Shown piece by piece: positions 36,820 to 60,909 of a DNA stretch of 64,000 nt. Source of the DNA: an uncultured Candidatus Bathyarchaeia archaeon (GTDB lineage: Archaea; Thermoproteota; Bathyarchaeia; Bathyarchaeales; Bathycorpusculaceae); the NCBI GenBank assembly GCA_964582085.1, contig CAZOPV010000006.1:17026-81025 (forward strand), in the 5' to 3' direction. Every line of letters begins with the position of its first letter. Positions within the stretch are counted from its first letter, which is position 1. Made by a program: the position numbers and the translations under genes. The notes below the pieces were generated by a model, which saw nothing but the letters and a program-made list of their open reading frames with translations, was not told the DNA's origin and ran no database searches.

Positions 36820-36913
36820 TACTGTAACCTGTTTTGGTGTTTAACAATGGGATTTTACTTGTTTCAGCTTGATGCTTTTCTACCTTTTTGCGTTGAAAAT
36901 GTAATTCTGACGG

Positions 36914-38857: not shown

Positions 38858-39083
38858 TTTCGTCTCTCGTGAACTCGCTAGCAGGAGGGGTTTTGGTTTA
38901 TAAGAGTTTTTAATAGGTCTTTTGTGTTTGTTGGTGTTTTATTTTGTTGTGTGATTAATTGTGGGTTTATGATTGTGGTTTTTTCTTTGGGCGTTTTGTG
39001 TGTTGTTGTAGTGGTGTAGTACAAAAAATGAATAAGGTTTATTAATACTTACGATAAATGTTGATGTGGATGTGGGGGAAACT

Positions 39084-40022: not shown

Positions 40023-40163
40023 GGGGCGGGTTCTTCAGGGGTGCGAGGTAATTAGTTTTTTGTTGTGGTTTGTTTTTTTGGTGTAAGTGTTTAATTTAGA
40101 GGTTGTGTTCGACAAAAAATTAATTATGTTAGACGTCGCTTATCTGTTATCGCTGGTTGTTTG

Positions 40164-41654: not shown

Positions 41655-41716
41655 TTATGTTTCAGTTATCCTTCGCTGTGGGTTGGTTTACTTGGTTTCT
41701 GGTGGGGTGTTGAATA

Positions 41717-42643: not shown

Positions 42644-42646
42644 AGT

Positions 42647-43477: not shown

Positions 43478-43538
43478 ATTTTGAAGAAGTTTTTTTGGTT
43501 TACTCTTCTTTGGTTTGTGAAAAGAGTGAGAGGGTGTT

Positions 43539-44651: not shown

Positions 44652-44739
44652 AGGGGTGTTCCTGTTTTGTTTTTGGTTGTATGTGTATTTACGTTTTGGC
44701 GTTTATTAGCCTGTTGTCTGTGTTTCTTTTGGATTGGTT

Positions 44740-44955
44740 TTATGCAGTTTTTATGTATGAATAGTTACCTCTAAAGTCGCCAAGCCTGATCCGATAAGAA
44801 TCTGTTAATCCTTTCAGTTTCTTTATGTCGTAATATTCTGCTGGGACAGGGTTTTCACGTAAGATCAAAAGGGACTCAAAAATTCTCCGTTTAATATGTT
44901 CAGGTAACTTCTTGGAACTTATTTGGGCTTGTTTTGCAATGATAATGTTGAACAA
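44740..44955 (-). pseudogene. RelE/ParE-family toxin remnant (C-terminally truncated)
   Basis: ..LRENPVPAEYYDIKKLKGLTDSYRIRLGDFR.. matches the RelE/ParE core. The ORF stops about 20 aa earlier than typical family members. Confidence 0.55.
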
Positions 44956-44959
44956 TAGG

Positions 44960-45165
44960 TCAGCAACCGAGTTCCTCAATAAACTCTTGTAAATCTATCT
45001 TTGACCCCTTCGCTAATTCACGTTTAGCTCTTTTGATCTTTTTTCTATCTCGGTTGCCTCTTCCTCAGGTATTAGCAGAGCTCTTAATCTAAGGAGTTAG
45101 AGTTTGACTTCATCTATTTTGTTGAGAACTATCTTCAAGTTTTCGTCGCTGACTGTAACGGTCAC
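44960..45165 (-). pseudogene. Cognate antitoxin remnant (in-frame stop plus frameshift)
   Basis: The minus strand reads VTVTVSDENLKIVLNKIDEVKL*LLRLRALLIPEEEATEIEKRSKEL, then shifts frame to KRELAKGSKIDLQEFIEELGC*. Its stop overlaps the toxin start region. Confidence 0.45.
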
Positions 45166-45362
45166 AGTTTATAGCCTATCTTTAATATGGGCACAGCAAG
45201 AAGATTTCTCCTCTATTTAGGTATTCGTTAGAAGGCAGTAAAGTAGTTGGTAAATGGAGAGATTTATGCTTTTGTAGATTTAATGTTGCTTTTTTATTGT
45301 TCTTCAAGTTGATTTTGTGATAGCTTTTTTTGCTTTGGTTGCGCAGTTATTTTTTGAGGCTT

Positions 45363-45767
45363 ATGAACCGTGTGAGTAGAGCTCTTTTGGCGTTTACTCT
45401 TTTTGTGGTGACGTTTGCTTTGGCTTTCTGCTGTGTTGTGTGGTTGAGGAGTCCTGTCGTTGTTAGCCTTAGTGGTTTTGATGGGGAAACTTTTAGTGGT
45501 GTGTTTGAAGTTAAAGGGGGTAATTGTGATGTTGAAGTTGTGTATTTTCAGCGTTGGAGTTTGGGGTGGAGTTTGAGGGTTGAGCTTTTTGAGGAGGGAA
45601 AAAGTGAAGTGCCTGTGTTTTCAGCTACTGCTGTTCGCTATGTCCTTCCTGGTGGAACGGAGACTGTTGAGTTGAGTGCTCATCCGAGTCTTTCGCCTGG
45701 ACGATATTATCTTCGAGTTGAGTCTGTGGGTGTTCAGTGGACTGTGCACGTTGTTGAGTGGGAGTGA
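45363..45767 (+). CDS. Hypothetical N-terminally anchored beta-rich protein
   Basis: MNRVSRALLAFTLFVVTFALAFCCVVWL anchor followed by a ~100-aa beta-rich domain. Confidence 0.5.
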   Translation: MNRVSRALLAFTLFVVTFALAFCCVVWLRSPVVVSLSGFDGETFSGVFEVKGGNCDVEVVYFQRWSLGWSLRVELFEEGKSEVPVFSATAVRYVLPGGTETVELSAHPSLSPGRYYLRVESVGVQWTVHVVEWE

Positions 45768-45896
45768 CGGGGTTGTTTTTGTAAAGTAAAGTTAGACGAT
45801 GTAAGCGAGGGTTTTGTTTGGTGTTGTAGTTTTTTGTGTGTTTTGGGCGGTTTGTTTTTTGTTTTCTTTTTGTTGTATCATGTTTGTCGCTCCTGT

Positions 45897-46817
45897 TTAG
45901 GTTATTCTTGCTGCTGTGTCTATGTTGATGCCGTTTTCGTCGGTTGTGAATGTTAGCACCAGTGGCTTTAGGAGGCCTTTCATTTTTCTTATTGTGAGGT
46001 TATTTTCGAATTCGTGTGGTCCTTGTTTGAGTGTGAATTCTATGACGCCGTCTGCTAAGTTTTTGAGGGCGTTTATTTGGTTTTCTGCGTGGATGCCTAT
46101 AGGTATCACTGCAAAGTGTAGCCCTCCGTGGGTGCGTGTGACTGCTCTCCAGTAGAGCATGAGGTTGCTGATTTCTTTTGTGTCGTAGTTGGAGAGTAAA
46201 TGTCCCAGTTCGATGGTTGTCCAGTAGCCTTCTTTGGTTTTTGTTAGGAGGTCTGTTTTGAGTGCGTTTAGTCCTGTGGTTAATTTTATGCTGTTTCTGT
46301 TTGTGAGTCTTTTTGGGGAGAGGTCGGCTAGTTGTTGTAGGTCTGGAGTTTGTATGTCAATGAATTTCCAGTTTTCACTGTTTACGGCGTCTTTTATTGT
46401 CCAGTTGAATTTTTCCATTTTTTCTTGGATGTCTATGCTTAAGGTTTCAGCGAGGTAGCAGGCGGTTTTTCCGTTTTCCAAGGTGTGGTTGTATAGGATT
46501 TGCTGGGTGAAGACGTCGTAATTGCTGCCTACTTCGCCGCAAATGAGGATGAGACAGTGGTCAGGTATGCCTCCGCCTAAAGCGGCATCTATGCCTGATA
46601 TGCCTGTGCTGACAATTTTTTGGGCGGCGTTTTCTGTTTTGGTCATGAGCTGCTCCGGCTCTTGCTTCTCTTCGCGAGGGACGCGTTGAGGGGGTTCCCC
46701 GATTTTTGGAAGCGGCGGGGGCGTTTCCTCTTTGGGTTCGTAACGTGCAAAGGTTTCTTCTATCACGTCACGCGTCCGCTTCTTCTGTACGGTGTTTTGG
46801 TCGGAGTTTTTACTCAT
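45897..46817 (-). CDS. KaiC/RecA-like protein with degenerate Walker A and a disordered N-terminal extension
   Basis: GISGIDAALGGGIPDHCLILICGEVGSNYD replaces the GxxGxGK[ST] P-loop. A ~75-aa E/P/K-rich N-terminus precedes it. Confidence 0.7.
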   Translation of the reverse strand: MSKNSDQNTVQKKRTRDVIEETFARYEPKEETPPPLPKIGEPPQRVPREEKQEPEQLMTKTENAAQKIVSTGISGIDAALGGGIPDHCLILICGEVGSNYDVFTQQILYNHTLENGKTACYLAETLSIDIQEKMEKFNWTIKDAVNSENWKFIDIQTPDLQQLADLSPKRLTNRNSIKLTTGLNALKTDLLTKTKEGYWTTIELGHLLSNYDTKEISNLMLYWRAVTRTHGGLHFAVIPIGIHAENQINALKNLADGVIEFTLKQGPHEFENNLTIRKMKGLLKPLVLTFTTDENGINIDTAARIT

Positions 46818-47001: not shown

Positions 47002-47532
47002 TTACCACTCGCCGGGCGTGTAGTAAGTGCCTTCAACCACGAAACCAGTGCTCGTTACCAGTTTCAGCGTATAAGCAGTGTTCACGGCAAGATCAGTTCG
47101 TATGGTTACGGTTTTTGTTGTTTCTGGTATTGGCAATGAGAGACCACCAGATTTAAAACCAATCGAGGCTGTCCAAGTTGTGGCGTTTGTGAAGCCTGAG
47201 TTTAGGACGTCGCCCTGTGGGACAGTCAGGCTGCTTACTGATTCGCTGATTATGATTTGGCTTCCCTTTACGAGGTGGATGGCTTCAATTGTAGCTGCTA
47301 CTGAGCCGGTGTTTCTTATGCTCACATAGATACCATATGTGTTGTCTGTCGTGTTTTTGCCGAAATAGACTGCGTCGAGTTTTATTCCTGTTTGGGCTTG
47401 CTGGGATTGGTTGGTTGCCAGCGACATGGTCCACGTGTATGTTACTATCGCAGCTGCTACGGCTATGGCTACGAGAAGCAACGTGGCTATGATTGGGCTA
47501 ACTCCGCGCCGATTTAGTTTGAGTTTTTGCAT
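47002..47532 (-). CDS. Archaeal type IV pilin (DUF361-type class III signal peptide)
   Basis: MQKLKLNRRG|VSPIIATLLLVAIAVAAAIVTYTW. GGAGG lies 9 nt upstream of ATG 47532. The track start at 47550 lies inside the SD. Confidence 0.85.
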   Translation of the reverse strand: MQKLKLNRRGVSPIIATLLLVAIAVAAAIVTYTWTMSLATNQSQQAQTGIKLDAVYFGKNTTDNTYGIYVSIRNTGSVAATIEAIHLVKGSQIIISESVSSLTVPQGDVLNSGFTNATTWTASIGFKSGGLSLPIPETTKTVTIRTDLAVNTAYTLKLVTSTGFVVEGTYYTPGEW

Positions 47533-47610
47533 TTTTGTTTTTTCCTCCAATTTGTTTAGTTTAATCTTATGTGGATCTTGCGCTTAAAGGTGGTGCTGCC
47601 GCAAGTGTAT

Positions 47611-47886: not shown

Positions 47887-48603
47887 ATGAGCCAACGTGT
47901 ACCTACAGGTATCAAAGGTTTTGACGAACTCGTCGAAGGCGGCTTCCCAAACGAGAGCCTAATTCTAATGGCAGGCGAACCGGGTGCAGGAAAAACAACC
48001 TTCTCAGCCCAATTTCTCTACGAAGGCGCAACCAACTTTGGAGAAAGAGGCGTCTACGTATGTTTCGCTGAAACAAAAAAGGCCCTCCTCCGCAACATGC
48101 TCCGGTTCGGGTGGGACTTTGAGCGTCTCGAACTAGAAAAACGCTGTCTCGTTTTAGACCTCTCCACCTCAAAAGAAGCAGGTATCCAAAACAACCTTGA
48201 CATTATGTTGCGCGAAGTCACAGCTCTAAAAGCTAAAAGACTCGTCATAGACTCCTTCACATCCATGGCTATGGCCATGAAAGAAAGCATAGAAATACGC
48301 CACCTTGCACACTTACTCTACAAATTTCTCCAAAGCGTAGGCTGCACAACCGTCATGATCTCCGACACGCCATGGGGCTCAAAAAAAATAGGCTCCGGCA
48401 TCGAGGAATTCATAGCTGACGGCATAATCCTTATGCACACATACTTCAACAAAACCGGCGAACTCAACAGAAAACTCCGCATCATCAAAATGCGAAACAC
48501 CAAACACTCACTGATGACCCACAAATACCATATCCTCTCCACAGGAATCAACATTTCACCAGCCGAAACAACAAAACAAAAAGGAGAAAGAAAAGGTGCC
48601 TAA
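47887..48603 (+). CDS. Single-domain KaiC-like ATPase (ArlH/RadA-like fold)
   Basis: GIKGFDELVEGGFPNESLILMAGEPGAGKTTF Walker A and KRLVIDSFTS Walker B. 238 aa. Confidence 0.8.
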   Translation: MSQRVPTGIKGFDELVEGGFPNESLILMAGEPGAGKTTFSAQFLYEGATNFGERGVYVCFAETKKALLRNMLRFGWDFERLELEKRCLVLDLSTSKEAGIQNNLDIMLREVTALKAKRLVIDSFTSMAMAMKESIEIRHLAHLLYKFLQSVGCTTVMISDTPWGSKKIGSGIEEFIADGIILMHTYFNKTGELNRKLRIIKMRNTKHSLMTHKYHILSTGINISPAETTKQKGERKGA

Positions 48604-48831: not shown

Positions 48832-50487
48832 TTAAGGCGCCACTTGCACTACGGCACCACAATACGCTGAAGTTATTGAAGGTGAAAAATTCGGGTAATA
48901 TGCGGTAATTGCCAAATTATACAGTGTAGTTGCCAAAACTGCAGGCGTAATAGCGCTAAACTGGTAAACTAAGTAGTTGCCGCCTGCAAGGGTTGAAGAA
49001 GATGATTCTACAGAAATTCTCCACGAACCATCCTCCTGCTGCGTTATTAATTGAGAGCTATAGTTCCACCCAGTTTGAGCACCTGCAGTTACATTACGCC
49101 ACCCTGTGGGAATTTGCAAAAGCAGATTAATTTTCGAAGTTAAGGTATCTGCACCAGCGCTATTATAAATCACCACATTGAAGGTCTGGTTAGACGAGGG
49201 TAAAACATTTGAAAGACAATACTGCCTATTTGATAGCGGAGTATTTGGTGTTCTGGTAAGATATACGTTGATAGCGGGATACGTGTTAGCTGTGGAGGTT
49301 GCAAAATTCTTAAGAAATCTGCCTTCAGTAGTTATTGCTTCTACCGTAACCTGTGTTTCAATCACCTCAACGTTGTCAATTTCAACAGTGAAGGTGAAAT
49401 TATAAACAGAAAGCGGTGGTATCGTTATCGGTGCACTACCTGCCCTGCCAGCCTCCCAAAAAACACCTGAATATACCCCAGAGGATCTCCGTGCATACCA
49501 CCCAGTTGCAGGGTTCACGCCGGTTAAAGAGTTTGGATCAAAAATGTTCAAGGCTGTTGATATCACAGCTACAGAATAGACCGTAATGGAACGATTATAA
49601 GGGTTAGCCAAGGCGACACCCCAATAGGTGAGAACGCCATCGGTAGTATCAAGAAGCGCAGGTATACTACCAAACGCATCTAAATGTATCAGCGGCATAG
49701 ATGTAACTTCCGCCGAAACCTGCAACGAGGTCGCATAGATCGTAGTCATGGCGTAATTGCCTGCAGGAGCGCCAACAAACGACCCGTTTAACGTAGAACT
49801 TAAACCTGAGCCAGTTACCTTGTAAACGTAAACAAAATAGGCAGCGCTTCCAGCAGGCAACAACTCTATAATTGGAGGGTTAGGACCATCTACTAATTCC
49901 AAACTTGATGGCGGATTTACATCCAGTGTAGGAGTCAAATTATAAATGTTGTTTCCTGACGTGTCGTTGTTGGTTACGCATAAAATGACTGTCACGTTAT
50001 TACCAATATAGTTGGTGGAAGTTGCCATTATGCTAATCCGCGCTTTAATCGAAGCCACTATATTGTAACTAGCAACATTACCCCTTTCAGTAACGACGCG
50101 TACAGCATAATTCTTACCAGAAGTCAATGGTAGGCTTGTAACGTTACTTATAGACATGCCTGGAGTAATGTAAAGACTAGAAAAATTAACTGAGAGATGT
50201 TCATTGTTAGTTTGGTTAATTATCCATAAACGCATGAGCCTAGCTGTAACAGAGCCTTGATTGGTAATGTTAAGAACCAAATGATTATCAGAATTTAAAT
50301 AAGCCGCAGTTATCACAACGTGCTCCTGAGAACGTTCAGTATCCAAACGCCGCATCCTCTCTTGGATTTGATAAACCTCAGTGAGAAACGCCGCCATCAA
50401 AACAATTAAACTGAGAAACAGCACCGCACCTATGGCTGTCGCTTGGCCGCGCTTTGACTGCCTAAAGCGCCGCAAATTCTTCAGCAA
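48832..50487 (-). CDS. Large pilin-like surface protein (class III signal peptide)
   Basis: RQSKRG|QATAIGAVLFLSLIVLMAAFL followed by a pilin-type beta domain (LVLNITNQGSVTARLMRLWI) and a ~400-aa extension with many N-x-S/T sequons. Confidence 0.7.
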   Translation of the reverse strand: MLKNLRRFRQSKRGQATAIGAVLFLSLIVLMAAFLTEVYQIQERMRRLDTERSQEHVVITAAYLNSDNHLVLNITNQGSVTARLMRLWIINQTNNEHLSVNFSSLYITPGMSISNVTSLPLTSGKNYAVRVVTERGNVASYNIVASIKARISIMATSTNYIGNNVTVILCVTNNDTSGNNIYNLTPTLDVNPPSSLELVDGPNPPIIELLPAGSAAYFVYVYKVTGSGLSSTLNGSFVGAPAGNYAMTTIYATSLQVSAEVTSMPLIHLDAFGSIPALLDTTDGVLTYWGVALANPYNRSITVYSVAVISTALNIFDPNSLTGVNPATGWYARRSSGVYSGVFWEAGRAGSAPITIPPLSVYNFTFTVEIDNVEVIETQVTVEAITTEGRFLKNFATSTANTYPAINVYLTRTPNTPLSNRQYCLSNVLPSSNQTFNVVIYNSAGADTLTSKINLLLQIPTGWRNVTAGAQTGWNYSSQLITQQEDGSWRISVESSSSTLAGGNYLVYQFSAITPAVLATTLYNLAITAYYPNFSPSITSAYCGAVVQVAP

Positions 50488-50692: not shown

Positions 50693-52039
50693 CTACCGTA
50701 GGAGCACCACAGGAAAGAAAGCAAAAAAGAAAACCACAGTTACCAACAGTTGGACAACCAACGCTCCCTTCTTTATTCTATCTGAAAGCGGAAGGCTACG
50801 CCAGAAGTAAGGAATCCCCAAAGCCAAAGCGGGGATCGTATAGATAAAATAATAATTGAACGTCATGCGCTGCACAAACAACCCAAACAAGAACCACGGC
50901 AAATACGTCGCAGTTATCCAAGAAATATAAAACAAGGCCACCTTGACGTTACTTTTCTTTAAAAGACTCCAAAGCGCCACAGCCAAAATGGGAACCAGCA
51001 TATACGCAACCGTAGGCGTCACCTGAGAAACATAGTCCACAGTAACCTTTGAAACATTATCCGAAGTCACCGCCACCGAGAAGTAATGCGGCGAATTGAA
51101 TACGTCGCCAATTGGCAGTATCCACGACCATGGTGGACGGTAATTTGCTTCTGTAGTGTTAATGGTGGGCGCTAAACCTGAAAAGTAACCAAATGCAAAC
51201 AACATATGCTCAACAGGGTTAGTTATGTAATTTGACACCGTAAAATTGGAAGTCGACGTTATCGTCGTTAAAGTGGCACCATTCGCGTCAACAACAATGT
51301 TTTCATTTATGTTCTGCACAAGAACCGTCGAAGTCGTCGGCTTATAGACTACGTCATAAACCCAAAGTCCTCCTCCACCAACCAAAAGAAGCACCAAAAA
51401 GAAAGAACCAAATTTTTGGATGTTCACTTTGCTTAAATGCTTCTTTAGTGAAAGGTGAGTTAGTATGTGATAAATAAAAACAGCGCCAATTAAAAGTAGC
51501 GCCAGTTCCTTCATCAAGAACGCCACGCCGAAGGCAACAGCAGACCACTTGTACCGCTTAGCAAAATAAAGTTCAATGCCCAAGAGCCCAAACAAAATCG
51601 CAGGCAAATCTAAAATAAAAATTGAACCATTAACAAAATACATGACATCAAACGAGAGAAAAGCCGTAGCCAACAAGGCATACTTGCCATCTAGGAACCG
51701 TCTTGCGATTAAATAGAAAACGTAAAGCGACAAAACCGACATAACAACTATCGGTAATCGCCATGCCAACCAATAATTCCCAAAAACCGCGATTGACAAC
51801 CCAACAACGATCTTCGCCAGGGGCGTATGCTCAGCATTAGCCGCCTCCAAATGAAGCGTCTTCAAAGCAGCAGGGACATAATGTGCCTCATCAAAAACGT
51901 AGCCGTCAGAGGGCGTAGACATAATAAGGAAATGCAACGCCAAAACCAAAAGAAGCAAATAACCTATGTTAAACTTCTTCAAAAACGCTTGCGTCTTATT
52001 CCACACGGAATATAAATCTAACTCCAGTTTTATGCTCAA
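50693..52039 (-). CDS. GT-C fold glycosyltransferase, PMT_2 / ArnT-like (dolichyl-phosphate-mannose-protein mannosyltransferase family)
   Basis: About 11 TM helices. The first extracytoplasmic loop carries DGYVFDEAHY, which matches the family DE motif. Confidence 0.7.
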   Translation of the reverse strand: MSIKLELDLYSVWNKTQAFLKKFNIGYLLLLVLALHFLIMSTPSDGYVFDEAHYVPAALKTLHLEAANAEHTPLAKIVVGLSIAVFGNYWLAWRLPIVVMSVLSLYVFYLIARRFLDGKYALLATAFLSFDVMYFVNGSIFILDLPAILFGLLGIELYFAKRYKWSAVAFGVAFLMKELALLLIGAVFIYHILTHLSLKKHLSKVNIQKFGSFFLVLLLVGGGGLWVYDVVYKPTTSTVLVQNINENIVVDANGATLTTITSTSNFTVSNYITNPVEHMLFAFGYFSGLAPTINTTEANYRPPWSWILPIGDVFNSPHYFSVAVTSDNVSKVTVDYVSQVTPTVAYMLVPILAVALWSLLKKSNVKVALFYISWITATYLPWFLFGLFVQRMTFNYYFIYTIPALALGIPYFWRSLPLSDRIKKGALVVQLLVTVVFFFAFFPVVLLR

Positions 52040-52091
52040 CGTGCAGCTCAGCTTCCGTTTTATATAAAGCTACGCGCAAATAAACTTTTTT

Positions 52092-52694
52092 TTATATCAC
52101 TCTGCAGAGGAACAGTTTTCCTATAAAAACAATTGTCTGTAAGCCATCACGGATATTGCGAAGTTTAACATAATTCCCCAACTTGCTTTTCGCAAACACA
52201 ATCGGGTACTCAGCTATGGTGAACCTGTGATTTGCCTGCATCAAAATCGAAACCCCAATTTTGTACCCCACAGTCTCAATACGTAACTGATCCAGCACCG
52301 ATTTCTTGATCACTATAAACCCACTCATCACATCAGAGATTTCCTGTAGTCCAAGAAGAAGCCGAGTGCATTTGCAGAAAAACCTGCTAATCAACCGCCT
52401 TATCAGCAAATCATCAGACCGCGCCCCAACAACATAACGCGAACCTATCACTATATCCGCCCGCTTCAAAAGATTAAACATACCCTGAAAATAAACAGGA
52501 TTATGTGATCCGTCACAATCCATAATCACAACAACATCCCCTTTAGCCTTATTAAAACCCGACAGAACCGCATTCACATAAGATGGCTCAGTCTGAACAA
52601 GAATTTCATAATCCCCTTTCATGCCAGCTTCAATTGACTCAAGCAAAGACCGCATTAACGTCGGCTTAAGCGAAGGAATCACAACAGAGATCAT
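52092..52694 (-). CDS. GT2 glycosyltransferase, Dpm1/Ppm1-like polyprenol-phosphate sugar synthase
   Basis: ISVVIPS.., GDVVVIMDCDGSHNP (DxD region). It is small and soluble. The ATG at 52694 is preferred. Confidence 0.7.
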   Translation of the reverse strand: MISVVIPSLKPTLMRSLLESIEAGMKGDYEILVQTEPSYVNAVLSGFNKAKGDVVVIMDCDGSHNPVYFQGMFNLLKRADIVIGSRYVVGARSDDLLIRRLISRFFCKCTRLLLGLQEISDVMSGFIVIKKSVLDQLRIETVGYKIGVSILMQANHRFTIAEYPIVFAKSKLGNYVKLRNIRDGLQTIVFIGKLFLCRVI

Positions 52695-52908
52695 ACAAGA
52701 CACACGTTTGATAGCTTTTATAACAAAGGTACTGATACTTCTTACTTGTGGTCAAACTAAAGTAAAAACCCTCAAACAGTACAGGAAACAATTCAACTAT
52801 GAACAAGCTAACACGCTCATTCAACAGCAAAGCAACATGCTTCACCACCCTAAAACACCGCAGGTACCTCTTTAAATGGGGTACCAAAAAAAGAAGGCGC
52901 ACAGACAA

Positions 52909-53883
52909 ATGCGAATAGCCTTCTGTCACCACCTATCTTTAGGATACTACGGCGGAGGAGAAAAATGGGTCATAAACGTAGCCAAAGAATTATCCCGCAG
53001 AGCATACCACGTTGAAATATTCGCGCTACCCTTCATGCTAGAAGGAAAAGCAAAAATCAACCCAACCGAAGAATTAGAAGACATCCCATACCAAGAACGC
53101 ATAAACCACAAAGTGAAGGCAGACATAGTTTACGTCACATATAACCCACTTAACTGGCTCAACTTTCAAACAACTACACCAAGAATAGCAGGAATTCACG
53201 CACAAACATACTGGACAAAAATAAACCCCAGATACGGCTTCAAACCCAACCTCGCCAACATGCTGCACAAAATAAACGGCAACTTTGAACTAAAACGCTT
53301 CAACGCAGTCCACATGGTAACCAACGCCTACAAAATAACACACTCAAGAGTCTACTACATCCCAAACTTTGTCGACAGCCAAACCTACAAACCAACCCAA
53401 AACAAAGACCCAGACTTCACGGTAGTCTACTCAAGCAGACTAGTCTGGCAAAAAGGCTGGCAAGTATTCCAGGAAGCAATTAAGCATTTAGAAAAATACG
53501 AAAAACGCATCAAAACAAAAGTCGCCGCAAGTAAAATCAAAGAACAAGACATGCCAGAGTTTTTATCCCGATCACACGTAGCTCTCCTACCAAGCGAAGT
53601 AGACACCTTCGGATTAGCCATCGTAGAAGCACTCCTATGCGGAACCCCAGTTATCACAACATCATTAACCACACACAAAGCACTACAGCTACCCTTGATC
53701 TACGCAGATTCAGCTAAAACGTTCGCAGAAGAAACCAGAAAACTCTGCAATTTATGGTACAACAACAAAGAAAAATACTTCAAGTTGGCTCAACACTGCA
53801 GACAACAAGCCCTAAAATACGACAAAAACAACATCATGAACAAACTAGAAAACATGTTCGAGGAAGTGTACAACAAACCTTGA
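52909..53883 (+). CDS. GT4 (GT-B fold) glycosyltransferase
   Basis: MRIAFCHHLSLGYYGGGEKWV N-terminus. C-terminal SEVDTFGLAIVEALLCGTPVI matches the E-x7-E region. Confidence 0.75.
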   Translation: MRIAFCHHLSLGYYGGGEKWVINVAKELSRRAYHVEIFALPFMLEGKAKINPTEELEDIPYQERINHKVKADIVYVTYNPLNWLNFQTTTPRIAGIHAQTYWTKINPRYGFKPNLANMLHKINGNFELKRFNAVHMVTNAYKITHSRVYYIPNFVDSQTYKPTQNKDPDFTVVYSSRLVWQKGWQVFQEAIKHLEKYEKRIKTKVAASKIKEQDMPEFLSRSHVALLPSEVDTFGLAIVEALLCGTPVITTSLTTHKALQLPLIYADSAKTFAEETRKLCNLWYNNKEKYFKLAQHCRQQALKYDKNNIMNKLENMFEEVYNKP

Positions 53884-54413
53884 CTACAACAGAACCACGC
53901 ATACTAAATTTAGGCTGCGGAAACCAAACCTACGGCACATACCGCGTAGATATCACACCCACAAAAACCACAACCCACGTCTTCGACGTAGAAAAAGGCC
54001 TGGTGTTCCCTGACTCTTACTTTGACGAGGTCTACGAACAAAACCTCTTCGAACACCTAAAAAACCCCAACTTTCACCTAATGGAAATCCGCCGCGTCCT
54101 TAAACCAGGTGGCCGTCTAACGTTGATAACAGACAACGCTGCCTGCATCAGATACTACCTGCTCAGAACACACACAGGCGGTTACATGGGGCACCGGAAT
54201 TTACTAACCCGCAGCAGCGATAAGCACTACGCTATATACACAAAGGAACACCTAAAAAATCATGTTGTAAGCGCTGGCTTCGAAGTCGTGAGCATACACT
54301 TCGTGGAAACCGACTACGTTACGCGGTTTATGGACAAGTTGTTCAGAAAAATTTTTTTTCCGCTCAAAAGTTTAACCTATCCCAGAATTTGCGTGGTCAG
54401 CAAGAAAATTTAA
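53880..54413 (+). CDS. Class I SAM-dependent methyltransferase
   Basis: ILNLGCGN motif I and LKPGGRL. The TTG start overlaps the GT4 stop (cTTGA). The track ORF from 53754 is an overlap artefact. Confidence 0.7.
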   Translation: MTTTEPRILNLGCGNQTYGTYRVDITPTKTTTHVFDVEKGLVFPDSYFDEVYEQNLFEHLKNPNFHLMEIRRVLKPGGRLTLITDNAACIRYYLLRTHTGGYMGHRNLLTRSSDKHYAIYTKEHLKNHVVSAGFEVVSIHFVETDYVTRFMDKLFRKIFFPLKSLTYPRICVVSKKI

Positions 54414-54439
54414 AACTCCAAACGTATTGTCTTGCATAC

Positions 54440-56611
54440 CTAATACGTCGTCGTGGTCGTAATCGTGGTTATGTAGGTTGTAGTGCCCAATGTGGTTGAC
54501 GTTGTAACCGTCGTAACCTCGGTTGAACTATAAGTCGTAGTGCCTGACGTTATGGTCGTCGTAATTGTGGTGGTGTAATTTGAAGTTACAGTTGTCACCG
54601 TGGTCGTTGTAGACGTGGAAGTGCTCGTCCCTGACGTGCTGGTGCTTGTCATCGTGGTGGTTCCCGAAGTAATTGTCGACGTTGACGGTGAAGTCGCCGT
54701 CGTGGTTGTAGTCGTGGCTATAATTAGCGTAGTTGTCGTAGAGGTTGTGGTGGTCACAGTTAAAGTGGCAGTTGTCTGGGTCGTTGTTGTGATCGTAGAA
54801 GTTGTAGTCGTCGGGCTTGTTGTTGTAATTTGAGAAGTCGTAGTGGTCGGAGTCGTGGTTATCACAGTTGTCGTTGTCAAACTCGTTGTAGTCACATTTG
54901 ACGTACTTGTTGTAGCTGAAGAAGTCACGACCGTACTTGTACTTGTAGTCGAAGTGGTCGTTGTTACCTGACTTGTTATAGTGGTAGTTATGGGGTCTTT
55001 AGGTTTCAACGCAAACGCCCTCACACCCCAAGGATCTGAAGCACCCATAGTGTAACTTCCGCCGCTTATTGTCCCCGCAGACGGCATAGCAGCAGTTTGA
55101 AGCTGAATACAACCGTCAGCGCCTGCAGTGCTGGTGAACTCTCCTACAGCTTCTGTCCAATCCCCACCCGTTTCTCCAGTAAAAGAGCCAACAGCGTTGT
55201 CATCATTTACGAACACAAAAGCAACCGCCAGTCTGTATGTGTCCGACGTCGTAACCGACGGCGCCGCAATAGTGTTTGACGTAGCCGATAAGAAGCCACC
55301 TCCCTCAGTAAAGCTTGAGGTTGCAGCATTGCGGAACGCATACATCCTAGCCATTTTGTTCGCCGGGCCGCCAACAGTGATTGTGATAGTTCCCGACTCG
55401 GTGCCATCGCTTATTCTGTAGTAAATCCATTGTCGCCCAGTTCCTGTTGAATCGGGACCATACAGTAAAGTAAATCCGCTTGGAGTTGTTGGACTATTTC
55501 CTATATCTCGAACTGTAACCTGGAGCAAGATCAAGTCACCTGATTGAAGACCCGACGGATACGACGGTGTAGGATTGCCTGTGGTGCCCGAACCTGTTCC
55601 AGCCGAAACATAGGTTACTTGGCTTTTCGGAATAGTTGACGTAGTGGTTGTCTGAGAGGTTGTAGCAAACGTCGACGTAGTGGTAGTTGGTGATGTTGTA
55701 GTTACTGTTTGAGTGGTTGTTGTAAGCGTTGTGGTTGTAACCGTTGATGTTGAAGCTGAAGTTGTCGTAACCTGAAGTGTACTAGTGGTTTGAGTGGTGG
55801 TTGTAACCTGAGAAGTGGAAGAAGACGACGTAGTGGTAGTCACCTGTAAGGTTGTAGTAGTTGGTGTAGCCGTAGTTACAGTACTAGTAGAAGTCGTCTG
55901 GGTTGTAGTCGTTACTGGATAAGTGGTGGTTGAGGTGGTTGTCAAAGTTGAAGTGCCAGAAGTTGTTGTTGAAGTTAGCGTAGTTGTGCCCGAAGTTGTA
56001 GTGGACTTCAGAGTAGATGTACCTGGAGTAATTGTTGTAGTAGTTAGCGGCGTGGTAGTGGTGGTCTGAGTTGAGGTGCCGCTTGTGCTTGTAATTGTGA
56101 CCGTTGATGTAGTCACAGTCGTAGTGAAAGTGCTGGTTGCGGAAGTTGAGGATGTTGTAACTGTAGAAGTAAGCGTTACGGTAGTAAGAACGCCTGTAAA
56201 GGGCGCAGCAACTTCTATTCTTGTCCCACGGGAACTTACAAGCCTAAATATGTATGCTGAGTTATCAGAGAATCCAAGCGGGTAAGTTATATTTATCCAA
56301 GCGCTGTCGCCTGGCAGAATGTAAGTGCCAGACGATATAATCGTGCTAATACTTCCATTTATATCGACGCTGACTATCTCCACGTCTGCTTCTCCAACAT
56401 TAAACACATACAACGAAGCTGTGGTGTACGAATTGAAACGTATATTCTCAACGGTTATGCGTTCTTGGAGTTCTAAAATTGGCCCACGCCTTTGACTGTT
56501 AATCCAACTGCTGTATGCCCCATAAATTAGTCCGAATGCAACAATAGTTACTACAATGAGCAACAGAGCAGTAACTACCGTTTCAACACCAGCGTTTTTC
56601 CGAAATGGCAT
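54440..56611 (-). CDS. Mucin-like poly-Thr/Ser pilin-domain surface protein
   Basis: MPFRKNAG|VETVVTALLLIVVTIVAF class III signal and a pilin beta domain. Two ~185-aa Thr/Ser tracts flank a ~210-aa globular domain. Confidence 0.8.
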   Translation of the reverse strand: MPFRKNAGVETVVTALLLIVVTIVAFGLIYGAYSSWINSQRRGPILELQERITVENIRFNSYTTASLYVFNVGEADVEIVSVDINGSISTIISSGTYILPGDSAWINITYPLGFSDNSAYIFRLVSSRGTRIEVAAPFTGVLTTVTLTSTVTTSSTSATSTFTTTVTTSTVTITSTSGTSTQTTTTTPLTTTTITPGTSTLKSTTTSGTTTLTSTTTSGTSTLTTTSTTTYPVTTTTQTTSTSTVTTATPTTTTLQVTTTTSSSSTSQVTTTTQTTSTLQVTTTSASTSTVTTTTLTTTTQTVTTTSPTTTTSTFATTSQTTTTSTIPKSQVTYVSAGTGSGTTGNPTPSYPSGLQSGDLILLQVTVRDIGNSPTTPSGFTLLYGPDSTGTGRQWIYYRISDGTESGTITITVGGPANKMARMYAFRNAATSSFTEGGGFLSATSNTIAAPSVTTSDTYRLAVAFVFVNDDNAVGSFTGETGGDWTEAVGEFTSTAGADGCIQLQTAAMPSAGTISGGSYTMGASDPWGVRAFALKPKDPITTTITSQVTTTTSTTSTSTVVTSSATTSTSNVTTTSLTTTTVITTTPTTTTSQITTTSPTTTTSTITTTTQTTATLTVTTTTSTTTTLIIATTTTTTATSPSTSTITSGTTTMTSTSTSGTSTSTSTTTTVTTVTSNYTTTITTTITSGTTTYSSTEVTTVTTSTTLGTTTYITTITTTTTY
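54443..54991 (-). repeat. Coding low-complexity Thr/Ser tract 2
   Basis: About 183 codons, Thr-dominated, running to the C-terminus (..ITTITTTTTY*). Confidence 0.8.
55628..56191 (-). repeat. Coding low-complexity Thr/Ser tract 1
   Basis: About 188 codons that are almost entirely ACN/TCN/GTN, with imperfect TTSGT(S/T)TL- and QVTTTT-type repeats. Confidence 0.8.
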
Positions 56612-56866: not shown

Positions 56867-59071
56867 GTGAAAAAATTTATTCTAATACTCCTAATACTCT
56901 TCACCTCAATAGCAACTGCAGCTTCATGCGGTTGCACCCGCGCAGAATCCACAGTAATAATGACAGTAAACTACATCATCGTCGGCGGCGGAACAGGCTA
57001 TTCACCACCCACATTTCATTATATTAATGCAAACGGTGAACAGGCTAACTTAACCCTAAGTCAAAACCCCACAGTAGTGACCGTTCTTTCTTCATCTTCA
57101 TGGTCCGTTACACCTGCTTCACTTGAAGGATCAATGGAAAACGAGAGATGGTGCACCGGCGAAGCAGCAACTGGAACCGCATCCTCCGTAGCCATAACAT
57201 TCACATTTTACCACCAGTACAAAGTCAACACAAGCTTTTCTACTTCTGATAGCTCCCAACCATCAGCGGCAGTTATTCTCTCAGGTGTTTCATTAGGCGG
57301 CGCGTTTGATGCGCCCTTGTCGAATACAACAACCTTTGTATGGCTAGACGCCGCGTCAAATTGGACCGTAACCAACCCCATAATATCCTCTTCAGGAACT
57401 GAACGATGGTATGCTACAAACGAAACCAATGGCACGGTAACTCCAACTACAGTAATTGCACCACACTACCACCACCAGTACAAGGTCACTTTCGCTCAAT
57501 CAGGTCTCGGTTCAGACTATTCAGGCACAATTTTAACGGTAAATGAAACAACAAACCTTGAGTCGTTGCCAACCAGCACGTGGGCTGATAGGGGCACTTC
57601 AGTAAGTTTCAATTATACCCCTGAAGTTCCAAGTACACTTCCAAACAAAAAATATGCACTGGTAGCAACAAACGCTTCATCCCCACTGACAATTTCAGCT
57701 GCAACCACCATCAGCGGCAACTACACAACACTCTATTACATAACAATCAACAGCCCACACGGCAATCCAAATAAAACCTCGCAATGGGTCAACGCAGGAG
57801 ACACCTTCACAGTATCGGTCACTAACCCAGACATTATCGAGCCAGGTCACCAGTGGAGCCTCACCGCTACATCGCTCGATGGCGTAGTTCAACCTCCCTC
57901 AAACTCATTAACCCTCACAAACATACAAACAGCCCACAACATAGTCTTCACCTGGATCGAACAATACGTAATCTCTGCCTCAACAACCCCCAACGGCCAA
58001 ATTTCCCCAAACGGAACCCTCCCGCTCAAAGCTGGAAGCAACCAAACCTTCACAATAACACCAAACCCCGGCTACCACATAGTTAACGTGGTAGTAGACA
58101 ATATCTCTATGGGGCCAATCACCTCTTACACTTTTACAAACGTTAACGCCCCCCATCACATATCTGCTACATTTGAAGCAAACCCCAACTTAAGTAACGT
58201 GACCTTCATAGTCACCGGTCTCCCAAACGGAACACGCTGGAACCTAACAGTAGGCAACAGAACATTAACCTCAACATCAAACACCCTAACAGTCAGAGAC
58301 CTACCAAGCGGCATACACCCATGGAACATAACAGCAACTATCCCAGGTTCAGAAGGAACACGGTATTTAGCCGCCATATCCAGCGGCTACGCGTCAAGCA
58401 ACAACGTATCAATAACTTACACAACTCAATATAGCTTAATTGTCACCTCGCCCTATGGCTCTGCAAGAGGCTCAGGCTGGTACAACAAAGGCGCCACTGC
58501 ATTTGCAATTCTTGACAGAGACGTAATAGACGAAAATGACACTCTAACATACACCTTCACAGGTTGGACAGGAGATGCAACAGGAACAAGCTTGACAAGC
58601 AACCCTATTGTAATGAACGAACCAAAAAATGCCTTGGCTAAATGGACAACCACCTGTCGCCTAAACCTAACAAACCTAGACGTCACACTAGAAACTAACA
58701 GTACACTCAACGAATTAGCAACCAACGAAACAAACATAACACTTGCCGTTGATGGCAAAACCGACACCAACGGCTACTTAATCATCACACTACCCAAACA
58801 ACCAAGCGACATCGCAACACAACTACGCGTTTTCTTAGACGGAATCGAAATAACACCCCAAATAATCCCAGGTAACACAACAGACTTCCTATACATCACC
58901 TACCCAAATAAGCCACAAACCATAACCATATCAAACCCAGCCGCGGGCGCAGCTGAAAACGAAGAAGGCATCGACTGGTCCCTAATTGCAGCAATACTCA
59001 CATTGATAATCTCATTTGTCATAGTAGTATACCTAATAAGGTCCCTGCGTAAATCCACACAAAGTTTTTGA
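56867..59071 (+). CDS. Sequon-dense surface glycoprotein candidate with B-repeat-like domains and C-terminal TM anchor
   Basis: Signal peptide KKFILILLILFTSIATAAS. More than 20 N-x-S/T sequons. Repeats of the type YxLxVxSxYGxxxGSGWYxxG..FTGWTGD. C-terminal IAAILTLIISFVIVVYLIRSLRK. Confidence 0.75.
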   Translation: MKKFILILLILFTSIATAASCGCTRAESTVIMTVNYIIVGGGTGYSPPTFHYINANGEQANLTLSQNPTVVTVLSSSSWSVTPASLEGSMENERWCTGEAATGTASSVAITFTFYHQYKVNTSFSTSDSSQPSAAVILSGVSLGGAFDAPLSNTTTFVWLDAASNWTVTNPIISSSGTERWYATNETNGTVTPTTVIAPHYHHQYKVTFAQSGLGSDYSGTILTVNETTNLESLPTSTWADRGTSVSFNYTPEVPSTLPNKKYALVATNASSPLTISAATTISGNYTTLYYITINSPHGNPNKTSQWVNAGDTFTVSVTNPDIIEPGHQWSLTATSLDGVVQPPSNSLTLTNIQTAHNIVFTWIEQYVISASTTPNGQISPNGTLPLKAGSNQTFTITPNPGYHIVNVVVDNISMGPITSYTFTNVNAPHHISATFEANPNLSNVTFIVTGLPNGTRWNLTVGNRTLTSTSNTLTVRDLPSGIHPWNITATIPGSEGTRYLAAISSGYASSNNVSITYTTQYSLIVTSPYGSARGSGWYNKGATAFAILDRDVIDENDTLTYTFTGWTGDATGTSLTSNPIVMNEPKNALAKWTTTCRLNLTNLDVTLETNSTLNELATNETNITLAVDGKTDTNGYLIITLPKQPSDIATQLRVFLDGIEITPQIIPGNTTDFLYITYPNKPQTITISNPAAGAAENEEGIDWSLIAAILTLIISFVIVVYLIRSLRKSTQSF

Positions 59072-59143
59072 TTACACCAAACAAACCATAAATTCAAATA
59101 ATCACATCAACAAAAAACCTAAACAAGAAAACAGGTGCAATCA

Positions 59144-59893
59144 ATGATAGAAAGAATCAAATCAGGCATACAAGGATTAGACGAACTAATCGAAGGCGGT
59201 TTCCCCAAAGACTTTTGCTACGCCATAGTAGGTGGTCCAGGAGCAGGAAAAACAATCTTTGGCTCACAATTCATCTACCACGGAATAAGCCGATACAACG
59301 AAAACGGTCTATACATTACGCTCGAAGAGCCCCCGCACTCCATTGCTAACAACATGCTGAGATTCGGCTGGAACTTCTACGAGCTAGAAAAAAGAGAAAA
59401 ATTAGCCCTCATAAACGCCACTCCAATAAAAGAACCAGGTCAAAGCAAATACACCCTCAAAGGTGAACTAGTAACAGAAGCCTTCGATGTCGACGGACTT
59501 TTAGGCTTAATAGCTGAAGCCAAAAGAAAAATTAACGCTAAAAGATGCGTAATCGACTCTCTCACCGCCTTATCCCTAAAGTACAAAGAAGAATTTGAAA
59601 TGCGCCAACAAAGTTTAAAACTAATCCGCGGTTTAATGGAGATGAACCTGACAACCCTTCTCCTCACTGAAAAATCTGAAGAATCTGCAGACCAGAAAAA
59701 ATTTAGCCCTGTAGAATTTTTAGCTCAAGGCATAATACACCTCCACGTTTACCGCATACGAGACTTTATCATACGCGCAGTAGAAGTAAGAAAAATGAGG
59801 GGCACAAAAATAATCAACAAACTCTGCCTCTACGACTTTACCGAGCAAGGCATAATGGTTTACCCACAAGAAACAATCTTCCGAAACGCCTAA
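59144..59893 (+). CDS. Single-domain KaiC-like ATPase
   Basis: GIQGLDELIEGGFPKDFCYAIVGGPGAGKTIF Walker A, the YITLEE catalytic Glu pair and RCVIDSLTA Walker B. GGTG SD precedes ATG 59144. Confidence 0.8.
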   Translation: MIERIKSGIQGLDELIEGGFPKDFCYAIVGGPGAGKTIFGSQFIYHGISRYNENGLYITLEEPPHSIANNMLRFGWNFYELEKREKLALINATPIKEPGQSKYTLKGELVTEAFDVDGLLGLIAEAKRKINAKRCVIDSLTALSLKYKEEFEMRQQSLKLIRGLMEMNLTTLLLTEKSEESADQKKFSPVEFLAQGIIHLHVYRIRDFIIRAVEVRKMRGTKIINKLCLYDFTEQGIMVYPQETIFRNA

Positions 59894-59976: not shown

Positions 59977-60909
59977 TCATTGCCGTGCAGATTTCTTCTT
60001 AACCACCAACACAGCAACGATTACCACAACAACCACTACCACAATTGCTGCTACAGCAGTACTTAACGTTGAAGACGGCGAAGAGGGACTTGGTGACTGA
60101 GTTGGCGGCTCTGTTACAGAAGGCGATCCGCTGACAGAAACGCTGGTAGTACCTGTAGAAGTAGGCGTCGGCGAAGATGTTGGCTCAGGTTCTTTACTCT
60201 GAATCAACAAAGAGTAACCAGCAATTTGAGCCGACATCTCGGGCGTAGCATCAAGAGGCTTAAGAGAAAACTGGACAGACTCGTTAGGCGCAGTATAATT
60301 AGCTAAGTAGTTAGTGAACCCTGTTCCTATAACCGCGCCGGATGCATTGTAAAACGTGCCTGTTACCCACACTTTGCCGCTCTGCTGGCTACCCACGTTT
60401 TGCAGGTAACCTACCACATTGTAAATGCCGTTGTTGTCAACGTACGAAGTGTTAGCCACAATTCTTAAGCCATCATACTGGCGTACATCTGTTTCATCAG
60501 CTAAAATCACCCGAAAACTCACATGATCCAGCAGTGGTGTCCAAGTGAGGTTGCCTGAAAGGGTACTCATCACGTCAAAGAGCATGTAGAAGGGTGCTTT
60601 TTGCTGAGGCAAAAGGTTGTTGACAAACGCAATGCTGTAGGAAGCTGCTTGTGGTTCACCATCTGTGGTGTAAGCTATGCCTTCTAAACGCACAAAATCT
60701 ATAACGCTTGAACCCACATTCTGTATTTCCCCCACCACAACAAGGTCACCCGGCATAGCATAGTAACCGTAGTTTTGTGGCACATACCATGAATAGCTCA
60801 GAATCTGTATGTCCTCTCTAGCAGCACTGACGCTTGAAACAGACACACATAGACCCATCAAAAACAAAGTAATCATTAAAATCGTCATCAATTTTTTCAT
60901 GAAGCTCAC
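59977..60909 (-). CDS. Secreted two-repeat beta-sandwich protein with Ser/Pro/Thr linker and C-terminal TM anchor
   Basis: Signal peptide. Internal duplication (VVGEIQNVGSSVIDFVRLEG / VVGYLQNVGSQQSGKVWVTG). PTSSPTPTSTGTT linker. AIVVVVVVVIVAVLVVKKK anchor. Confidence 0.7.
   Translation of the reverse strand: MSFMKKLMTILMITLFLMGLCVSVSSVSAAREDIQILSYSWYVPQNYGYYAMPGDLVVVGEIQNVGSSVIDFVRLEGIAYTTDGEPQAASYSIAFVNNLLPQQKAPFYMLFDVMSTLSGNLTWTPLLDHVSFRVILADETDVRQYDGLRIVANTSYVDNNGIYNVVGYLQNVGSQQSGKVWVTGTFYNASGAVIGTGFTNYLANYTAPNESVQFSLKPLDATPEMSAQIAGYSLLIQSKEPEPTSSPTPTSTGTTSVSVSGSPSVTEPPTQSPSPSSPSSTLSTAVAAIVVVVVVVIVAVLVVKKKSARQ

Follow-up and report, generated by a model that had tools for sequence, protein, structure and literature searches.

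A conserved set of glycosyltransferase and methyltransferase genes adjoins Thr/Ser-rich surface proteins in Bathyarchaeia: a candidate module for extracytoplasmic O-glycosylation

A 64,000-nucleotide stretch of contig CAZOPV010000006.1 from an uncultured Candidatus Bathyarchaeia archaeon (the window, to which coordinates refer unless a locus is named) encodes a membrane glycosyltransferase of the GT-C type, glycosyltransferases (GTs) of families GT2 and GT4 and an S-adenosylmethionine (SAM) methyltransferase next to a protein that is nearly half threonine and serine. Comparison with related loci shows a conserved, rearranging set, GT-C and GT4 with or without the methyltransferase and with or without the GT2, adjoining Thr/Ser-rich secreted proteins. 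The arrangement makes it probable that the module is dedicated to extracytoplasmic O-glycosylation of Thr/Ser-rich ("mucin-like") surface proteins, and the GT-C itself is rather likely to O-glycosylate its Thr/Ser-rich neighbour. The initial annotation of the window had proposed a Dpm1-PMT pathway for O-mannosylation of a poly-Thr pilin from five genes, all of which are present according to gene calls and domain matches (aa, amino acids):

50693-52039, minus strand: GT-C, PMT_2/GT39-like, 448 aa, TTG start (Pfam PF13231, E 1.7e-11)
52092-52694, minus strand: compact Dpm1/AglJ-like GT2, 200 aa from its ATG (PDB 5mlz, E 7e-19)
52876-53883, plus strand, divergent from the GT2 and GT-C: GT4, 335 aa (Pfam Glycos_transf_1, E 2.5e-13)
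53880-54413, plus strand: class I SAM methyltransferase, 177 aa, TTG start (Pfam Methyltransf_11, E 2.3e-9)
54440-56611, minus strand: Thr/Ser-rich pilin-like surface protein, 723 aa, the proposed acceptor (by composition)

Some details of the layout differ from those first described. On the minus strand the GT2 precedes the GT-C instead of following it. The 52-nucleotide (nt) spacer between them contains a TATA-like TTTATATA ahead of the GT-C start, and a TATA-like TTATAAAA precedes the GT2 start (both read by eye). The open reading frame (ORF) of the GT2 opens with GTG at 52703, and the true start of the GT4 is perhaps Met12 at 52909. The reported coupling of the GT4 and methyltransferase was verified, the TTG start of the latter overlapping the TGA stop of the former (cTTGA). 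The Thr-rich gene is convergent with the methyltransferase, with 26 nt rather than 27 between the methyltransferase stop and its own 3' end. Its product is 35% Thr and 13% Ser, or 49% across the whole 723 aa, where more than 50% had been given. No other window ORF contains 100 consecutive aa that are at least 50% Thr/Ser, and among window ORFs of at least 200 aa the median Thr+Ser content is 13%; this ORF is not a chance feature.

Linkage between the GT-C and proteins of this composition was analyzed in 170 non-redundant loci round GT-C homologues, comprising the matches listed in a metagenome contig scan and close relatives found by exact protein look-up. A Thr/Ser-rich ORF was defined as one of at least 150 aa, in any of six frames, in which Thr+Ser make up at least 50% of some stretch of 100 aa. 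Loci whose GT-C scored at least 350 bits were taken as the Bathyarchaeia clade, and the same loci were scanned for homologues of the window GT2, GT4 and methyltransferase. A Thr/Ser-rich ORF lies within 3 kb of the GT-C in 13 of 16 clade loci and in 15 of the 154 others (Fisher p 1.6e-9, for loci that are phylogenetically non-independent). A locus added later, L174, is also positive: its 1263-aa protein (54% Thr+Ser) starts 41 nt past the GT-C, and with it 14/17 clade loci have a Thr/Ser-rich secreted protein of 720-2200 aa within 2.5 kb. Absence of the pairing with Thr-rich proteins in relatives had been named by the initial annotation as a refutation; the pairing is strongly conserved there.

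The association is often very close. In L001, L003, L085, L086, L166, L168-L171 and L174 a gap of 0-50 nt separates the GT-C from the start of a Thr/Ser-rich gene that follows it on the same strand, and in L001 that start overlaps the GT-C stop (ATGA). Among 35 Thr/Ser-rich ORFs, 16 fall within 250 bp of the GT-C where 2.6 are expected (about 6-fold), and none of 200,000 random-placement simulations reached 16. On a neighbour-joining tree the association appears in at least seven deep lineages with differing gene orders. After masking for low complexity the partners form at least seven mutually non-homologous groups, plus that of L174, and so at least eight in all; what is conserved is therefore composition and not a protein family. 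In most partners a Sec-type signal is combined with a C-terminal transmembrane (TM) anchor, a class III N-terminus being confined to the lineage of the window and L165. The poly-Thr pilin of the initial annotation thus has a pilin-like counterpart in this lineage only; in the window protein a class III-type motif is visible and Pilin_N is matched below threshold.

The Thr-rich tracts are nearly free of N-X-S/T sequons, the L001 protein having none in 1593 aa. Activity directed at N-glycans is disfavoured because the partners are almost without such sites. In the L001 protein (9350-14131; 68% Thr+Ser), 12 of the 19 Asn residues stand in a repeated N-P-L, a pattern that resembles avoidance of N-glycosylation sites.

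Pairing extends beyond the Bathyarchaeia. In the DPANN loci L024 and L050 (Woesearchaeota/Nanoarchaeia) the GT-C adjoins a canonical Dpm1-like GT2, and proteins of 2187 and 2722 aa that contain near-pure poly-Thr runs, with up to 94% Thr/Ser per 100 aa, lie at 1.4-3.4 kb. Small Thr/Ser-repeat proteins lie 0-250 bp from the GT-C in seven bacterial loci (Chloroflexi in the records that name an organism) and are C-terminally anchored where their sequences were read. Within the clade, three negatives were found: L005, the L006/L014 type and the L007 type. The L005 contig ends 530 bp upstream of the GT-C, and a Thr/Ser-rich fragment is visible there. In L006 (205-3103) and L014 (8569-11467) a cis-prenyltransferase (UPP/dolichol synthase-like) and a full-length GT2 directly precede the GT-C in one co-directional block, a gene order that fits a polyprenyl-phosphate sugar donor. 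At 1.4 kb upstream, L014 also encodes a secreted protein of 857 aa that carries a (PT)n linker. L014 and L008 were considered as positives and rejected, their neighbours having only short P/T stretches or moderate Thr content.

Some operons of the clade carry further genes, in some cases two or three additional cytoplasmic glycosyltransferases. There are three of these and a radical-SAM enzyme in L174, and a pyridoxal phosphate (PLP) decarboxylase, with or without a radical-SAM enzyme, in L003, L167, L168 and L169. Small unannotated ORFs of 60-72 aa were also noticed inside some of the related operons. Public gene calls place small Val-rich ORFs antisense to the giant Thr-rich genes, reading the complement of ACN codons, and miss the real genes of 1500-2200 aa (L001 9350-14131, L166 11143-16275, L003 9401-16000, L168 and L169). 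The P0022 contig, seen through its gene table alone, has small antisense calls of the same pattern downstream of the GT-C. Because giant Thr-rich genes are missed in this way, mucin-like archaeal proteins are probably under-counted in databases.

Several units of cassette plus mucin-like gene stand beside genes of mobile-element type (L003 608-4408; L168 141-5026; L169 3292-5580 and 19702-20373; L174 19813-21455), namely an intein-containing P-loop NTPase, an HNH endonuclease, a DNA_pol_B_thumb protein and a D5-type primase-helicase. From these neighbours, the cassette may be carried on archaeal viruses or integrated elements. A PHROGs search of the conserved block upstream of the L003, L168 and L169 cassettes gave intein and HNH matches only, and no structural proteins.

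The GT-C belongs to a family of 540 representative clusters (E at most 1e-30 in 1.84 billion proteins). A near-identical sequence, which shares its 90%-identity cluster and belongs to a metagenome-assembled genome of Bathyarchaeia, is named "GT39 family protein, Bathyarchaeia archaeon" at NCBI. All 52 aligned homologues match Pfam PMT_2 and 33 of the 52 match PMT (PF02366, E at most 0.01); the window protein itself has a PF13231 PMT_2 match only, and none to PF02366 in Pfam. Its residues 44-55, SDGYVFDEAHYV, hold the loop-1 DE motif, with Asp50-Glu51 in the first extracytoplasmic loop, and D50, E51, Y54, N68, E70, K76 and R94 are invariant across the 52 homologues. The PMT_2 domain and loop-1 DE of the initial annotation are thus present, but the motif is not specific to PMTs. 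When the family was aligned with E. coli ArnT by hhalign (probability 15%, 106 columns), PDETRY was placed opposite FDEAHY, and the motif alone therefore cannot separate PMT from ArnT.

Other comparisons put the GT-C on the PMT side of that division, which the initial annotation had left to be settled. An AlphaFold (AF2) model (pLDDT 90.3, pTM 0.87) has about 11 TM helices, and in Foldseek its seven highest-ranking matches all belong to yeast Pmt1/Pmt2 or fungal Pmt4 (E 1e-8 to 2e-6, TMq 0.61-0.66), followed by ArnT (E 8e-6, TMq 0.54) and then PglB, ALG12 and other oligosaccharyltransferases. The sole match of the family profile to PDB sequences (E at most 1) is fungal Pmt4 of C. thermophilum, with FDEaHY, EHtPLaK and aWR opposite FDEVHF, vHPPLGK and AFR. 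A single-sequence phmmer search of the PDB, in which only spurious matches to polyubiquitin repeats were returned, had been set aside in favour of this profile. In NCBIfam the actinobacterial Pmt model is the top match of the window GT-C and is matched by 30 of 52 relatives (best E 6.5e-14), whereas ArnT is matched by none of the 52. Pfam annotation of the window neighbours revealed no ArnA/B/D/E/F-like genes near the GT-C. A beta-rich outer loop of about 115 aa (residues 235-345) lies between the helices counted as TM7 and TM8, which we take, by order of secondary structure, to be the position of the MIR-bearing loop in eukaryotic PMTs. Judged by sequence profiles and the predicted fold, the GT-C is a distinct, mostly archaeal PMT_2/GT39-like branch, nearer to protein O-mannosyltransferases than to ArnT; by its profile scores, which are far under bona fide Pmt thresholds, it is not a Pmt orthologue.

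For the GT2, the best PDB sequence match is the catalytic domain of P. furiosus DPMS (5mlz, E 7e-19). NCBIfam matches are led by AglJ (E 5e-12), with a dolichyl phosphate (Dol-P)-hexose transferase (E 1.7e-7) and, weakly, PgfS (E 3e-6) behind it. The motifs DCDGSH, GSRY and DvMSGF align with DADLQH, GSRY and DPVSGF of 5mlz, so that the DXD motif and acceptor loop are kept. The GT2s of the core clade, aligned from the window and from L003, L085, L086, L165 and L167-L170, are 192-209 aa long and have no TM helix.

Nearly every clade locus has an orthologue of the GT4 (E 1e-90 to 1e-163) along with the GT-C, and among the clade loci positive for a Thr/Ser-rich partner only L171 is without one. 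Methyltransferase orthologues of 162-178 aa are coupled to the GT4 and/or the GT-C in L001, L165 and L166, and the cTTGA-type coupling of GT4 and methyltransferase recurs in L001 and L165. PDB sequence searches with the two proteins gave generic family matches only and no functional assignment. Neither protein has an evident signal peptide or TM helix, and both must therefore work in the cytoplasm.

The 723-aa Thr-rich protein consists of a class III-type N-terminus (RKNAG/VETVVTALLLIVV), an immunoglobulin (Ig)-like domain, a first tract, a beta-sandwich domain and a second tract that reaches the C-terminus, and has no C-terminal anchor:

55592-56209, minus strand: Thr/Ser tract 1, aa 135-340, 69% Thr+Ser
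54992-55627, minus strand: central all-beta domain, aa 329-540 (AF2 pLDDT 97)
54443-55009, minus strand: Thr/Ser tract 2, aa 535-723, 71% Thr+Ser

The N-terminus, MPFRKNAG/VETVVTALLLIVVTIVAFGLIY, in which the motif RKNAG/VETVVTALLLIVVTIV is visible, matches Pilin_N at 16.6 bits (E 0.014), under the 25.2-bit cut-off; the L165 orthologue matches it with E 8e-4. The central domain has more than 120 homologues, including proteins of about 365 aa named "flagellin-like protein" by JGI. One homologue, P0246, has a canonical class III N-terminus (KGLSPVIASIILIAVTV), an Ig-like domain, a 15-aa PT linker and the central domain, with no long Thr tracts. Such homologues indicate that the window protein is a two-domain pilin-like protein with two large Thr/Ser expansions. 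No GT-C, GT2, GT4 or methyltransferase gene lies within 10 kb of P0246, a single observation that agrees with the enzymes occurring together with the Thr tracts. No convincing PDB fold match was found for the central domain. In BFVD it matches uncharacterised proteins of tailed phages and mycobacteriophage minor tail proteins (E 1.5e-16, TM 0.82, 26% identity), and from its model it may be a binding or adhesion head on glycosylated stalks. Homologues of the domain carry varied N-termini, for example collagen-like GATGPAG repeats (P0284).

The module is embedded among the genes of an archaeal type IV pilus, and L165, whose GT-C is 74% identical, is syntenic with the window throughout. The neighbouring features are:

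39066-40022 and 61142-63319: PAS-DUF835 sensor proteins flanking the pilus locus
40161-41654, plus strand: PilB-like ATPase (Pfam T2SSE, E 4e-40)
41717-42643, plus strand: PilC-like T2SSF protein 1 (Pfam T2SSF, E 3.5e-12)
42647-43477, plus strand: PilC-like T2SSF protein 2 (Pfam T2SSF, E 7e-19)
43539-44651: TackOD1 output-domain protein
45897-46817, 47887-48603 and 59135-59893: three KaiC-like ATPases
47002-47550, minus strand: archaeal type IV pilin, 182 aa (Pfam PF07790 Pilin_N, E 3.8e-5)
48832-50487, minus strand: 551-aa protein of class III-signal type (KRG/QATAIGAVLFLSLIVL), 205 nt downstream of the GT-C
56867-59071, plus strand: 734-aa secreted, C-terminally anchored surface protein with a Flg_new_2 repeat

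The KaiC-like, TackOD1 and PAS-DUF835 genes, among and beside the pilus genes, suggest regulated pilus expression; this set is also syntenic in L165. The 551-aa protein, the L165 counterpart of which has 545 aa, is not Thr-rich and has 14 N-X-S/T sequons. The 734-aa protein has 27 sequons and ranks second in the window for Thr+Ser content, at 26%. The three other anchored proteins with P/T/S linkers and a TM helix that the initial annotation had listed are all real. Two of these possible linker acceptors are PQQ_2 beta-propeller surface protein paralogues (2530-5034 and 12583-15153), which share a near-identical P/T/S/A/V-rich linker, a TM helix and a terminal "FLRKRK"; the other is a 310-aa protein at 59977-60909. 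Elsewhere in the window there is a second type IV pilus-like locus (21486-27388, with Pilin_N at 22126-22764, T2SSE at 24295-25875 and T2SSF at 25880-27388). A bacterial-type UvrC/UvrA/UvrB block occupies the minus strand between the two pilus loci (32324-38857). Across 30000-46000 the plus strand has a GC skew of up to +0.42 and an AT skew down to -0.43, spanning genes of both strands.

If the module does O-glycosylate Thr/Ser-rich proteins outside the cell, the GT2 would load a hexose onto dolichyl phosphate at the cytoplasmic face, and the GT4 and methyltransferase may lengthen and methylate the lipid-linked sugar before flipping. Once flipped across the membrane, the lipid-linked glycan would be moved by the GT-C, by means of the loop-1 Asp-Glu at the outer face, to Ser/Thr hydroxyls of the emerging Thr-rich tracts. 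The glycosylated tracts could then form stiff, protease-resistant stalks that present the beta-sandwich binding domain. The Dpm1-PMT O-mannosylation pathway first proposed is partly supported, by a PMT-like GT-C, a Dpm1/AglJ-like GT2 and a conserved Thr-rich pairing, but the GT-C is far from Pmt orthologues, the GT2 lacks the canonical DDxS segment, and the cytoplasmic GT4 and methyltransferase do not fit a simple two-step scheme. A plain sequence of Dpm1 then PMT is incomplete, because the GT4 is cytoplasmic and nearly constant in the positive loci.

Several observations count against extracytoplasmic O-glycosylation by the GT-C. The window GT-C scores 35 bits against an 800-bit cut-off for NCBIfam Pmt (NF058602), and Pfam finds no PMT_4TMC (PF16192) or MIR domain in it, PF16192 occurring only in the remote homologues P0071 and P0076. 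The DE motif was rejected as a diagnostic of PMTs, the lipid-directed ArnT aligning to the same motif. The GT2 is missing from the positive clade loci L001, L166 and L171, and in 9/9 aligned core-clade GT2s an N-terminal (V/I)DDxS nucleotide-binding segment of about 30 residues is lacking, which is present in canonical Dpm1, ArnC and AglJ-type enzymes and in the GT2s beside DPANN and bacterial (Dehalococcoidales/Chloroflexia) GT-Cs. The Thr-rich gene of the window is convergent with and 2.4 kb away from the GT-C, not immediately downstream of it, and sister clades (L007, L090, Nitrososphaerales, Aigarchaeota) mostly have no Thr-rich neighbours. The p-values are overstated because the loci are phylogenetically related. 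No gene for a flippase of the GtrA, Wzx or small-multidrug type was seen in the 48.8-59.9 kb region of the window. Finally, the linkage of the GT4 to Thr-rich proteins is as tight as that of the GT-C, so the GT4 could itself be the protein glycosyltransferase. As regards the GT2 gene, the DDxS-less form is nevertheless conserved and frequently overlaps the GT-C start.

The presence of a cytoplasmic GT4 and methyltransferase suggests either a lipid-linked oligosaccharide or pre-glycosylation in the cytoplasm. On the former scheme, which we regard as possible but unlikely, the GT-C would be an en bloc O-oligosaccharyltransferase: an AglJ-like GT2 would start the glycan on dolichyl phosphate, the GT4 and other enzymes would extend and decorate it, the methyltransferase would cap it and the GT-C would transfer it whole. 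Extending enzymes elsewhere include GT2/GT7C-like enzymes, radical-SAM enzymes and the PLP decarboxylase, and the route would parallel the haloarchaeal AglJ-AglB system with a PMT-like enzyme replacing AglB. In haloarchaea, AglJ-initiated Dol-P-linked oligosaccharides are established, and AglJ is the best NCBIfam match of the GT2. The GT4 and methyltransferase need a cytoplasmic acceptor; their genes are translationally coupled, and in relatives the coupling extends to the GT-C. The additional cytoplasmic glycosyltransferases and radical-SAM enzyme of L174 and the decarboxylases of L003, L167, L168 and L169 point the same way. However, the characterised GT39/PMT-type and related Dol-P-sugar GT-C enzymes all transfer single sugars, and the known O-oligosaccharyltransferases, PglL and PilO, are of a different family. 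A corollary to which we would give similarly limited credence is that an en bloc cassette and its substrate, with hundreds of Ser/Thr sites, form a unit moving between chromosomal pilus loci and mobile elements. Cytoplasmic pre-glycosylation would instead make the GT4 the primary protein O-glycosyltransferase, acting before export, with the GT2 and GT-C adding a second, extracytoplasmic decoration. Giant Ser/Thr-repeat adhesins are modified by GT4s in bacteria, by GtfA/GtfB on serine-rich-repeat adhesins and SdgA/SdgB on SD-repeat proteins. The near-constant presence of the GT4 with Thr/Ser-rich partners and its weak NCBIfam match to SdgA (E 7.7e-4) agree with such a role. That match, however, is one of 16 generic GT4 matches, all far under cut-off, and the PDB matches are confined to the generic EX7E region. 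Neither an accessory Sec system nor a GtfB-like partner was seen, and export of heavily glycosylated proteins of 700-2200 aa by the Sec or pilin pathway would be problematic. The DPANN and bacterial Thr-rich loci, moreover, have the GT-C and no homologue of the window GT4. We consider this reading improbable.

It is about equally improbable that the GT-C acts on a non-protein acceptor (an N-glycan, to which a final sugar would be added as by H. volcanii AglS with Dol-P-Man, a lipid as for ArnT, or a surface polymer), its adjacency to Thr-rich genes reflecting a clustering of surface genes. AglS offers a precedent as a PMT-like, Dol-P-Man-dependent enzyme that acts on a protein-bound N-glycan (PMC4973528). 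Weak matches to the NCBIfam model "AZOBR_p60025 cell surface glycopolymer formation" were obtained for 39 of the 52 family members, a Thr-rich neighbour is missing for many of the relatives outside the clade, and the 551-aa and 734-aa neighbours in the window are rich in sequons. Yet mere clustering of surface genes sits poorly with the enrichment of Thr/Ser-rich ORFs near the GT-C, which involves unrelated partners across domains of life, and an N-glycan acceptor with partners that have almost no sequons; nor are there arn-type genes, and the similarity to ArnT is weaker than that to PMT. Extracytoplasmic O-glycosylation of the Thr/Ser-rich neighbour by the GT-C thus remains our preferred explanation.

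That archaeal S-layers, pili and threads carry O-glycans has been established for decades, and reviews and primary papers still describe the pathway as "elusive" (PMC8241124; PMC11607397). We found no paper that ties this GT-C family to Thr-rich proteins, which is weak evidence since our coverage of the literature is incomplete. The locus and its relatives offer a concrete candidate for Ser/Thr glycosylation in archaea, with an enzyme family, a class of acceptors and a minimal set of GT-C, GT4 and methyltransferase with or without the GT2. They also indicate that giant mucin-like proteins are encoded by Bathyarchaeia, a group abundant in sediments. Should a PMT relative prove to act on proteins here, it would be relevant to the proposal that the lumenal GT-C enzymes of eukaryotes descend from PMT-like ancestors. 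Transfer en bloc, if it occurs, would provide the first identified archaeal O-glycosylation enzyme and a type of reaction unknown for the PMT family. By analogy, the logic of extracytoplasmic glycosylation by a GT2 and a GT-C would be a known one, as in actinobacterial Ppm1/Pmt, the C. bescii GT39 enzyme and S. mutans Pgf, the latter two being backed by experiment. What would be new, from the sequences, is a distinct archaeal branch of the enzyme, a truncated GT2, the GT4 and methyltransferase partners and giant mucin-like candidate substrates.

Compared with the GT39 PMTs (yeast Pmt1/2/4, M. tuberculosis Rv1002c and C. glutamicum Cg_1014) and their Dpm1/Ppm1 partners, the module has in common a GT-C fold of about 11 TM helices, the loop-1 Asp-Glu, HPPL-K-like and Arg motifs, the pairing with a Dpm1-like GT2 and, presumably, Ser/Thr-rich acceptors. 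Identity to the window GT-C is only 11-16%, however, and the latter has a beta-rich insert in place of PMT_4TMC/MIR and a GT2 without DDxS; the system here is archaeal, with a GT4 and methyltransferase tightly linked and the substrate gene adjacent. TfpW of P. aeruginosa is a GT-C encoded beside a type IV pilin gene that O-glycosylates several pilin Ser/Thr residues from a lipid-phosphate sugar. TfpW differs in being a bacterial arabinofuranosyltransferase from another GT-C family, and its pilin is small and not mucin-like.

In the cnm-pgfS-pgfM1-pgfE-pgfM2 cluster of S. mutans, the GT2 PgfS and a PMT_2 protein are co-transcribed with an adhesin and modify its threonine-rich repeats, which protects the adhesin from proteolysis (PMC5856776). 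There, as here, a GT2 and a PMT_2 membrane protein are encoded beside the gene for a Thr-rich acceptor. The Pgf system differs in being bacterial, in the 16 predicted TM helices of PgfM1, in encoding an epimerase and a further membrane protein but neither a GT4 nor a methyltransferase, and in its substrates, which are small LPXTG adhesins rather than mucin-like proteins of 700-2200 aa. The gene of the C. bescii GT39 enzyme Cbes_1864 lies near that of its acceptor, celA, and glycosylation of Thr/Pro linkers depends on the enzyme (PMC6151902), a situation resembled by the L014 GT-C and its secreted (PT)n-linker protein. Cbes_1864 is bacterial, its acceptors are enzyme linkers, and no associated set of GT2, GT4 and methyltransferase has been described for it. 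The haloarchaeal Agl pathway (AglJ, soluble glycosyltransferases, AglP and AglB; AglD/AglS) shares with the module a Dol-P carrier, a Dpm1-like initiating GT2, cytoplasmic glycosyltransferases and a SAM methyltransferase, followed by an extracellular GT-C step, and AglS is PMT-like (PMC4973528). Its acceptors, however, are Asn and the N-glycan, and its transferase is AglB (GT66), whereas the GT-C described here is PMT-like and its partners are Thr/Ser-rich and almost free of sequons.

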